Of a stretch of 32,831 nt of DNA, positions 12,440 through 12,567 are shown piece by piece. The DNA is from a virus: UHGV virus genome UHGV-0163035; one strand, 5' to 3'. Made by a program: the position numbers and the translations under genes. Position 1 is the stretch's first letter. Every line of letters begins with the position of its first letter. Below the pieces are notes generated by a model, which did no database searches, was not told the origin of the DNA, and saw only the letters and a program-made list of their open reading frames with translations.

Positions 12440-12567
12440 TGTTTGTTCGGATTTCCTCCGAATGTCGCCCTTTCGGGGGCGCGGAATTGATGTTTCTGCC
12501 GTCCTTTTGACAATTTCGGCACAAACAAGCAAAAGCCCCGGTATGCATATCAGCTACCGAGGCTTTT
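12440..12567 (+). ncRNA. ncRNA-3: I-C repeat-like unit plus segments antisense to the island mRNA leaders
   Basis: Promoter TTGATT-17-TATACT (12410-12438); GTCGCCCTTTCGGGGGCGCGGAATTGATG from 12464; several hairpins; terminator 12531-12567. Confidence 0.6.

Follow-up and report, generated by a model that had tools for sequence, protein, structure and literature searches.

The window analysed here is the whole 32,831-nucleotide (nt) stretch of UHGV-0163035, a temperate phage in which a cassette of small minus-strand genes is placed between the integrase with its attachment (att) core and an amidase lysin (14300-15229). The cassette products are a protein of 98 amino acids (aa), a 67-aa helix-turn-helix (HTH) protein of family HTH_3, two 89-aa paralogues and a 125-aa protein. 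Two strong minus-strand promoters serve these genes, and three plus-strand promoter-like sites each stand ahead of a structured non-coding segment: ncRNA-1, ncRNA-3 and ncRNA-2. Our subject is ncRNA-3, in which a hairpin resembling a type I-C CRISPR repeat lies between two blocks antisense to the cassette leaders. We propose, largely from modelled RNA pairing, that ncRNA-3 may be an antisense repressor of an anti-CRISPR (Acr) cassette, built on a repeat-derived RNA gene and disarmed when Cas5c cuts it, a reading to which we give a probability of about 0.42. The locus contains the following features.

10534-11559 and 11638-11663, plus strand: integrase and att core, the core matching a host tRNA gene exactly at its 3' end
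11856-12022, plus strand: ncRNA-1, a likely Cracr, with promoter, 5' hairpin, repeat-like segment 11914-11953 with a host-type handle, and guide 11954-11970
12021-12317, minus strand: orf98, a 98-aa helical protein of no known family; AcrIC5 occupies the same position in relatives
12318-12389, minus strand: promoter (12389-12361) and short leader 1 (about 12356-12318) of the 98-aa gene, a predicted target of ncRNA-3
12410-12438, plus strand: predicted sigma-70-type promoter of ncRNA-3 (TTGATT/TATACT), of the type also found upstream of ncRNA-1
12446-12462, plus strand: 5' hairpin of ncRNA-3, its loop and flanks complementary to the Shine-Dalgarno (SD) regions of both leaders
12464-12492, plus strand: eroded type I-C repeat of ncRNA-3, with stem-loop 12466-12481 and handle-like tail 12482-12492
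after 12481, plus strand: predicted Cas5c cut
12497-12521, plus strand: 3' hairpin of ncRNA-3 with a 15-nt loop
12531-12572, plus strand: terminator-like hairpin and T run of ncRNA-3, assigned from the fold and facing the end of the HTH gene
12571-12774, minus strand: 67-aa HTH_3 protein (PF01381, E 2.8e-8)
12899-13168, minus strand: orf89, an 89-aa acidic protein, Acr candidate by context
13182-13451, minus strand: 89-aa paralogue of the preceding protein
13465-13842, minus strand: 125-aa protein of no known family, the first gene behind leader 2
13843-13928, minus strand: promoter (13928-13900) and long leader 2 (about 13895-13843), the strongest predicted target
13970-14135, plus strand: ncRNA-2, a likely Cracr, with promoter, repeat-like segment 14026-14064 with the exact host handle, and guide 14065-14080

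Predicted pairing of ncRNA-3 with the cassette leaders

An earlier note on this DNA, made by a model from the letters alone, had described a repeat-like hairpin embedded between one block that pairs with the SD and another that pairs with the mRNA 5' end, and both parts of that description hold. The hairpin at 12464-12492 (plus strand) is flanked by a 10-11-nt block at 12450-12460, complementary to the SD regions of both leaders, and by an 11-nt block at 12502-12512, complementary to their predicted 5' ends. Both blocks are predicted to sit unpaired in loops (probability 0.99-1.0 and 0.84-0.97), and the 10-mer of each occurs elsewhere in the window only at the two leaders. Co-folding with 57 SD-bearing start regions ranked leader 2 first (predicted binding energy, ddG, -26.1 kcal/mol) and leader 1 second (-17.5), against -16.1 for the third-ranked region and a median of -6.1. 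The SD is fully paired in the predicted complex, and the handle of ncRNA-3 is itself predicted to pair with the long leader, leader 2. Such exposed loops complementary to ribosome-binding regions, together with a predicted promoter and terminator of its own, are what one might expect of an antisense repressor, and we consider antisense action of ncRNA-3 likely on the strength of these models. The promoter hexamers are invariant in 12/12 aligned copies; a simple terminator scan missed the terminator-like hairpin. We rejected the TTGACA of the 3' loop as a -35 box, as no -10 box lies downstream.

Copies of ncRNA-3 in related phages fall into lineage types A, B (that of the window) and C (L014; here and below, labels in L denote loci and labels in G bacterial genomes, as used in the analysis). 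Across a conservation set of 14 variants, from which the search expression missed L014, the anti-SD hairpin and the 5'-end loop each take two forms and the upper stem of the repeat takes eight, while the stem base is kept (GTCGC in 14/14, GCG in 13/14); L014 has a double change at that stem base. We also co-folded 14 RNAs with 29 leaders in a full cross. The L014 RNA reaches -24 on its own leader, where the other 13 RNAs reach -13 to -17. Type A favours GGATTG leaders (-16.5 vs -14.3) and type B favours GAATTGAT leaders (-23.6 vs -21.4), a preference of about 2 kcal/mol for the leader class that shares the RNA's own handle letters; type A has an adjacent GGATTG leader in 11/12 cases, and type B stands beside a GGATTG leader in 0/8 pairs. 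These models support a specific pairing that changes together with the leader in two lineages. Type A ncRNA-3 is additionally complementary, over 12 and 11 nt, to sequence early in the coding part of both 89-aa genes (13135-13146, 13418-13428), with one mismatch in the window copy.

Several observations weigh against this reading. Leader 1 is ahead of the third start region by just 1.4 kcal/mol, neither leader ranks top by duplex-only energies, and the two targets are duplicates of each other, the leader 2 region being 88% identical to that of leader 1. Type A occurs with GAATTGAT distal leaders in 4 pairs, and in L246, outside the cross set, a type B RNA stands beside a GGATTG leader, the 3' stem there containing a mismatch. 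Since a single recombining phage group is the source of all variants, the co-changes come down to two or three events, and these may also have arisen by gene conversion among neighbouring direct repeats. Small shares of the ncRNA-3 region appear in 17/20 listed RNA runs, but the four runs inspected, as contigs only, were uninformative; a 160-nt contig from one RNA-library run covers 12374-12534, spans the promoter too and hence may be DNA, which makes it evidence neither way. L246 itself is a close phage relative in a genome labelled Collinsella, probably mis-binned.

The repeat-like hairpin and the type I-C host

The repeat of ncRNA-3 consists of a 6-bp stem, a UUCG loop and an 11-nt tail, followed by 38 nt to the terminator stem at 12531, close to the 37 nt or so given in the earlier note. 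A loose repeat pattern has one match in the window and matches in 9/100 shuffles. When scored with a covariance model built from 10 real I-C array repeats, the ncRNA-3 repeat is the top match in the window, yet it reaches just 10 bits (E 2.2), which tells against our reading: taken by itself, the window copy is within chance level as an I-C repeat. The same model gives all six type A orthologues tested 17.9-25.5 bits (E 5e-4 to 0.045). Four of the five other type B copies scored 9-14.3 bits, and the fifth, L010, was unlisted at E<=10, as was the type C copy L014. The likeness to I-C repeats claimed in the earlier note stands by way of the type A orthologues, the window copy alone being not significant. 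Because the orthologues score as I-C repeats, the ncRNA-3 hairpin is, judged from sequence, a real and repeat-derived element. The window contains nothing that Rfam scores at threshold; neither does the L002 copy, for which CRISPR-DR9 gives 14 bits (gathering score 45).

The host was found to have the matching subtype, type I-C. The orf98 cluster carries the source label Hominenteromicrobium mulieris; genome G184 was matched separately and is not equated with that species. One base at the edge of a pattern made from the att sequence differs in the host tRNA, so that the pattern matched 0/301 and 0/401 genomes; a prophage junction in L091 leads into host DNA 99% identical to G184 (1/401 genomes searched at that level). 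G184 has Cas5d above cut-off and a 19-repeat array, and Cas5d occurs in 5/14 genomes of its genus. Among 71 spacers tested, three match the window (at 29168 and 23843 from G184, at 18738 from G470) and one matches L014, all of them behind TTC, so the phage is under I-C attack. A further 31 spacers were unmatched (second G470 array 0/8, G472 0/7, and 16 other G470 spacers, window only). One 15-nt identity links 12493-12507 to a G184 spacer directed at a coding region of 17-kb phages (L381-L387); it is probably chance, since position 1 is mismatched and the register inconsistent. The second I-C system of G470 (L356, G470:C39) has a repeat that ends in an unusual TGAATTGAAAT handle.

Sister RNAs and phage relatives

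Cracrs (Cas-repressing RNA anti-CRISPRs) are phage RNAs that mimic host CreR and are aimed, in related hosts, at cas promoters (Liu et al., bioRxiv 10.1101/2024.10.29.618823, with I-C examples from Neisseria; statements about this and the other papers cited extend to the accessible part of each). They consist of a pseudo-repeat, a pseudo-spacer and a terminator, a make-up that ncRNA-1 and ncRNA-2 fit by sequence and whose layout ncRNA-3 shares. The host repeat ends in TGGATAGAAAT, a handle that ncRNA-2 matches at 11/11 and ncRNA-1 at 10/11 positions. The ncRNA-2 guide matches the G184 allele upstream of cas5 over 16 nt (G184:C35:149729-149747) and the ncRNA-1 guide matches the G470 allele over 17 nt (G470:C71:4320-4337). 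Both sites have TTC as protospacer-adjacent motif (PAM) with mismatches at positions 6 and 12 only, lie on the minus strand between a -10 box predicted by eye and the cas5 ribosome-binding site, and are unique among 5 genomes at <=1 mismatch. Only these two of 65,628 window 17-mers match at 14/14 when compared with 16 TTC sites upstream of cas5, a level reached by 0/20,000 shuffles of either guide. Host I-C crlRNAs, or CreRs, likewise have one pseudo-repeat, an 11-nt handle and a 3' hairpin (10.1101/2024.12.27.630466; 10.1101/2023.03.10.532045), and their targets show the same TTC PAM and mismatches at 6 and 12 (10.1101/2024.12.27.630466). CreR-like solitary repeats stand ahead of cas5 in both hosts, G184 and G470, and their guides are all but identical to those of the phage: the first 11 guide bases of ncRNA-2 are those of the G184 gene, and ncRNA-1 resembles that of G470. 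These repeats, and an additional handle-like element upstream of cas5 in G469, were placed on the minus strand of three loci:

L351, near 6884, minus strand: element upstream of cas5
L352, near 4201, minus strand: element upstream of cas5
L353, near 5550, minus strand: element upstream of cas5

We conclude from these sequence matches that ncRNA-1 and ncRNA-2 are likely Cracr silencers of two cas5-region alleles, and thus well-supported new candidates of an already described kind, which the supplements of the Cracr preprint may list; the earlier note is silent on such a role. They differ from the described Cracrs in being separate genes instead of an array and in excluding an Acr instead of accompanying one. 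In L320 and L326 the Cracr-type guide is of a third form that departs from ncRNA-2 by three changes; the host loci compared contain no target for it, and it may be meant for another allele. Leader 2 (13865-13879) contains a near copy, 14/15 nt, of the G184 cas5 target site, with GTG replacing the PAM.

Relatives of the cassette were found with a 17-nt pattern (17 viral loci, 15 of them homologous), a looser viral scan that added one, and a metagenome scan in which, among the matches listed, 10/119 loci were real homologues. Type A copies of ncRNA-3 have a near-canonical handle, and AcrIC5 (PF22147, E 1.2e-18; PDB 7yhr, E 1.8e-10) is usually the product of the gene that comes first after the neighbouring leader, L011 being the exception. 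Judged by these sequence matches, the cassette in relatives is an acr locus. The earlier note had named an Acr as the regulated product, and in the relatives an Acr does lie behind the predicted target leader; none of the window's four cassette proteins is recognisable as an Acr, which counts against our reading of the window itself. Across 24 cassette-spanning loci, duplicates included, acrIC5 occurs without a Cracr in 14, a Cracr without acrIC5 in 8, neither in 2 and both in 0; these loci are few haplotypes, so the exclusion is suggestive rather than statistical. Exclusion would be expected, since AcrIC5 is reported to block DNA binding by Cascade (10.1101/2025.06.06.658234) and that block would disable a Cracr. 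The combination of antisense blocks and repeat was confined to this phage group in the scans made: it was absent from other AcrIC5 loci (63 loci scanned), from the remaining matches of two repeat patterns (34 + 29 loci, with 9 solitary matches compared for shared 10-mers) and from 6/10 distant orf98 loci inspected. The orientation of the cassette relative to integrase and lysin is opposite between the two main haplotypes. Phage contigs of about 17-18 kb (L059-L061) have AcrIC5 homologues 79-86% identical, runs of small genes and a repeated intergenic element between genes. Solitary I-C repeats or mini-arrays also occur in other viral contigs (L322, L312, L278, L306/L318/L323/L329) and are candidate Cracrs or Racrs; several of them are accompanied by a 5' hairpin, a terminator or a promoter-like box.

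Another conceivable reading makes ncRNA-3 one more Cracr beside its two sisters, or a Racr-type decoy that titrates both Cas5c and Cas7, its leader complementarity being a by-product of local duplication; we judge this unlikely. One might point to the order of promoter, hairpin, repeat, spacer and terminator that ncRNA-1, ncRNA-2 and the I-C crlRNAs have in common, to the type A segment after the handle, which resembles the ncRNA-2 guide with a 2-nt shift, and to a target search that covered one genome per host species. Racrs, which draw Cas proteins into aberrant complexes and inhibit immunity, also cluster with acr genes: RacrIC1 is likewise a single I-C repeat in a phage acrIC5 locus, 11 nt downstream of acrIC5 on the same transcript (PMC10651486), a layout that we recovered in L185 and L195, and co-location with an acr gene is seen in our relatives with AcrIC5. 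However, ncRNA-3 differs from RacrIC1 in having its own divergent promoter and complementarity to the acr leader, and differs from Cracrs in having no cas-promoter target that we could find and two loops complementary to the phage's own leaders. At least nine PAM-proximal matches to a cas or creT promoter, plus a PAM, were found neither in 6 cas5 regions nor in a genus scan; no PAM-flanked cas-promoter seed appeared in any register (10 loci, 6 host-genus genomes, the same number of cas5 regions), and the genus-wide pattern was at background, with 10 matches vs 6 control matches in 14 genomes. Conservation is in the loops rather than the seed, and type A travels with AcrIC5, the blocker of DNA binding by Cascade, as the likely Cracrs never do (0/24 loci).

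A further alternative, that ncRNA-3 guides Cascade to the phage's own leader DNA and so represses leader transcription, strikes us as very improbable. The type A segment, 2 nt off register, does match positions 1-5 and 7-11 of AATTGATTTTG-type leaders, and the block stands behind TTG in 2/23 tallied leader forms. But the register set by the handle gives no seed match with a TT-type PAM at either leader, GTG occupies the PAM position of window leader 2, and the spacing from stem to segment varies between lineages. The logic would also be inverted, with the Acr off while Cascade is active.

A possible Cas5c-sensitive antisense repressor

The reading we prefer, that of an antisense repressor disarmed by Cas5c, is in outline the circuit put forward in the earlier note, to which a host, an Acr in relatives and a credible ancestry can now be added. 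It would work as follows. The 3' loop of ncRNA-3 would seed pairing at the mRNA 5' end, the handle would then zip onto the middle of the long leader, and the 5' loop would cover the SD, with the repeat hairpin extruded as a side branch. Cas5c would cut at the stem base and Cascade would presumably keep the 3' piece, so that the seeding loop is separated from the SD-blocking loop. The presence of I-C proteins would then allow the cassette to be translated, and their scarcity would shut it off, for example after the sister Cracr RNAs have silenced cas. A cut made in silico at the stem base about halves the predicted binding energy, from -26.1 to -14.8 and -14.4 on leader 2 and from -17.2 to -8.9 and -10.4 on leader 1. 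Plasmid and type I toxin-antitoxin antisense repressors likewise use hairpin loops for translational control of a leader; none that we found in the literature searched has a cut site supplied by a CRISPR repeat, as is proposed for ncRNA-3. What Cas5c reads is the base of the stem together with the unpaired 3' tail (PMC5965381), and pairing with a leader would therefore be in competition with binding of Cas5c. Cas5c of B. halodurans focuses on U22-G23-G24, and that of S. mutans is more tolerant (PMC8524198).

The handle counts against the Cas5c step. It is the most variable segment of ncRNA-3 (9 forms in 14 variants), and the U-G-G triplet is not conserved across them. The window tail keeps N-G-G as C-G-G and has no GAAA end; the 3' half of the window copy is gone, and this copy is down by five bases more than its nearest relatives. 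An 11-nt handle starting in U-G-G was thus found neither in the window nor in type A, where the tail is of 12 nt with one inserted base. The array that targets the phage has a handle of the TAGAAAT type, and this is in no ncRNA-3 variant. One simpler explanation is that ncRNA-3 is a plain antisense repressor whose repeat is a relic, a spacer hairpin left by a Cracr-like ancestor with Cas uninvolved, which we regard as possible if somewhat doubtful. It would account for loops that stay nearly invariant while the handle drifts and tracks the leader, for the low score of the window copy without its GAAA end and the unlisted L010 and L014, and for a handle unlike that of the targeting array, which ncRNA-1 and ncRNA-2 retain. 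It would not account for a stem base, the part read by Cas5c, that is kept while the upper stem varies, as in real repeats, nor for the type A copy, which is near-canonical at every one of the 14 acrIC5 loci that span the cassette. Both handle types of ncRNA-3 moreover resemble other repeat ends in the host genus (G472; the second G470 array), although alignment scores separate the two types only weakly; in leader 2, and likewise in the L002 leader, 9 nt are in common with one such repeat end.

Weighing these points, we consider a live Cas link more likely in the acrIC5 relatives of type A, where we would give it an even chance, than in the eroded window copy, where it seems improbable. More tentatively still than the repressor itself, we speculate that the locus could form an all-RNA loop, in which two Cracr guides silence cas5 alleles and a third paralogue serves as an antisense brake cut by Cas5c, releasing Acr on demand.

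The claim in the earlier note that no such circuit had been described held within the literature searched, which included few subscription papers: Racr, crlRNA, Cracr and Aca (anti-CRISPR-associated) papers were found there, and an antisense acr regulator with a CRISPR repeat was not. The word 'antisense' is absent from the accessible text on RacrIC1-acrIC5 (PMC10651486), and both 'antisense' and 'translation' from the accessible main text of the Cracr preprint (10.1101/2024.10.29.618823). The crlRNAs and CreRs, for their part, are host-encoded and act on DNA via Cascade, whereas ncRNA-3 is predicted to act on mRNA while uncut. Control of acr genes, in the accessible literature, is by Aca proteins that repress their own operon, with none described as responding to host CRISPR; it is also known to be post-transcriptional, through RNA binding by Aca2 in acr leaders (10.64898/2026.07.27.740549). 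ncRNA-3 is likely a variant of the solitary-repeat or crlRNA kind, without being an established Racr or Cracr, and the Cas-sensor step would be a novelty in kind. If true, such a step would make an antisense RNA that carries its own Cas5c site a direct immunity sensor, and for engineering a compact switch that responds to Cas. Even if the sensor step is set aside, the locus still suggests that a CRISPR-repeat RNA gene has been reused as an mRNA-pairing regulator, and it provides two I-C Cracr candidates, each specific to one allele, together with their host targets and the CreR-like genes of those hosts.

The cassette proteins invite some further remarks. The 67-aa HTH_3 protein may be Aca-like, to go by its context, and the palindromes that overlap the two minus-strand promoters (12361-12383; 13901-13923) are, from their sequence, candidate operators for it. 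No family, solved relative or fold was identified for orf98 (model pLDDT, the predicted local distance difference test, 67), and no family or clear solved-fold match for orf89 (model pLDDT 91.5; best Z 3.8); novelty of fold is not implied for either. The 89-aa family has 60 representatives, and contigs from RNA libraries of two studies show a form that skips one of the 89-aa paralogues (283 nt; window 12899-13451). Elsewhere in the window, a 24-nt tandem repeat occupies 6900-7232, inside a 259-aa open reading frame at 6747-7526.
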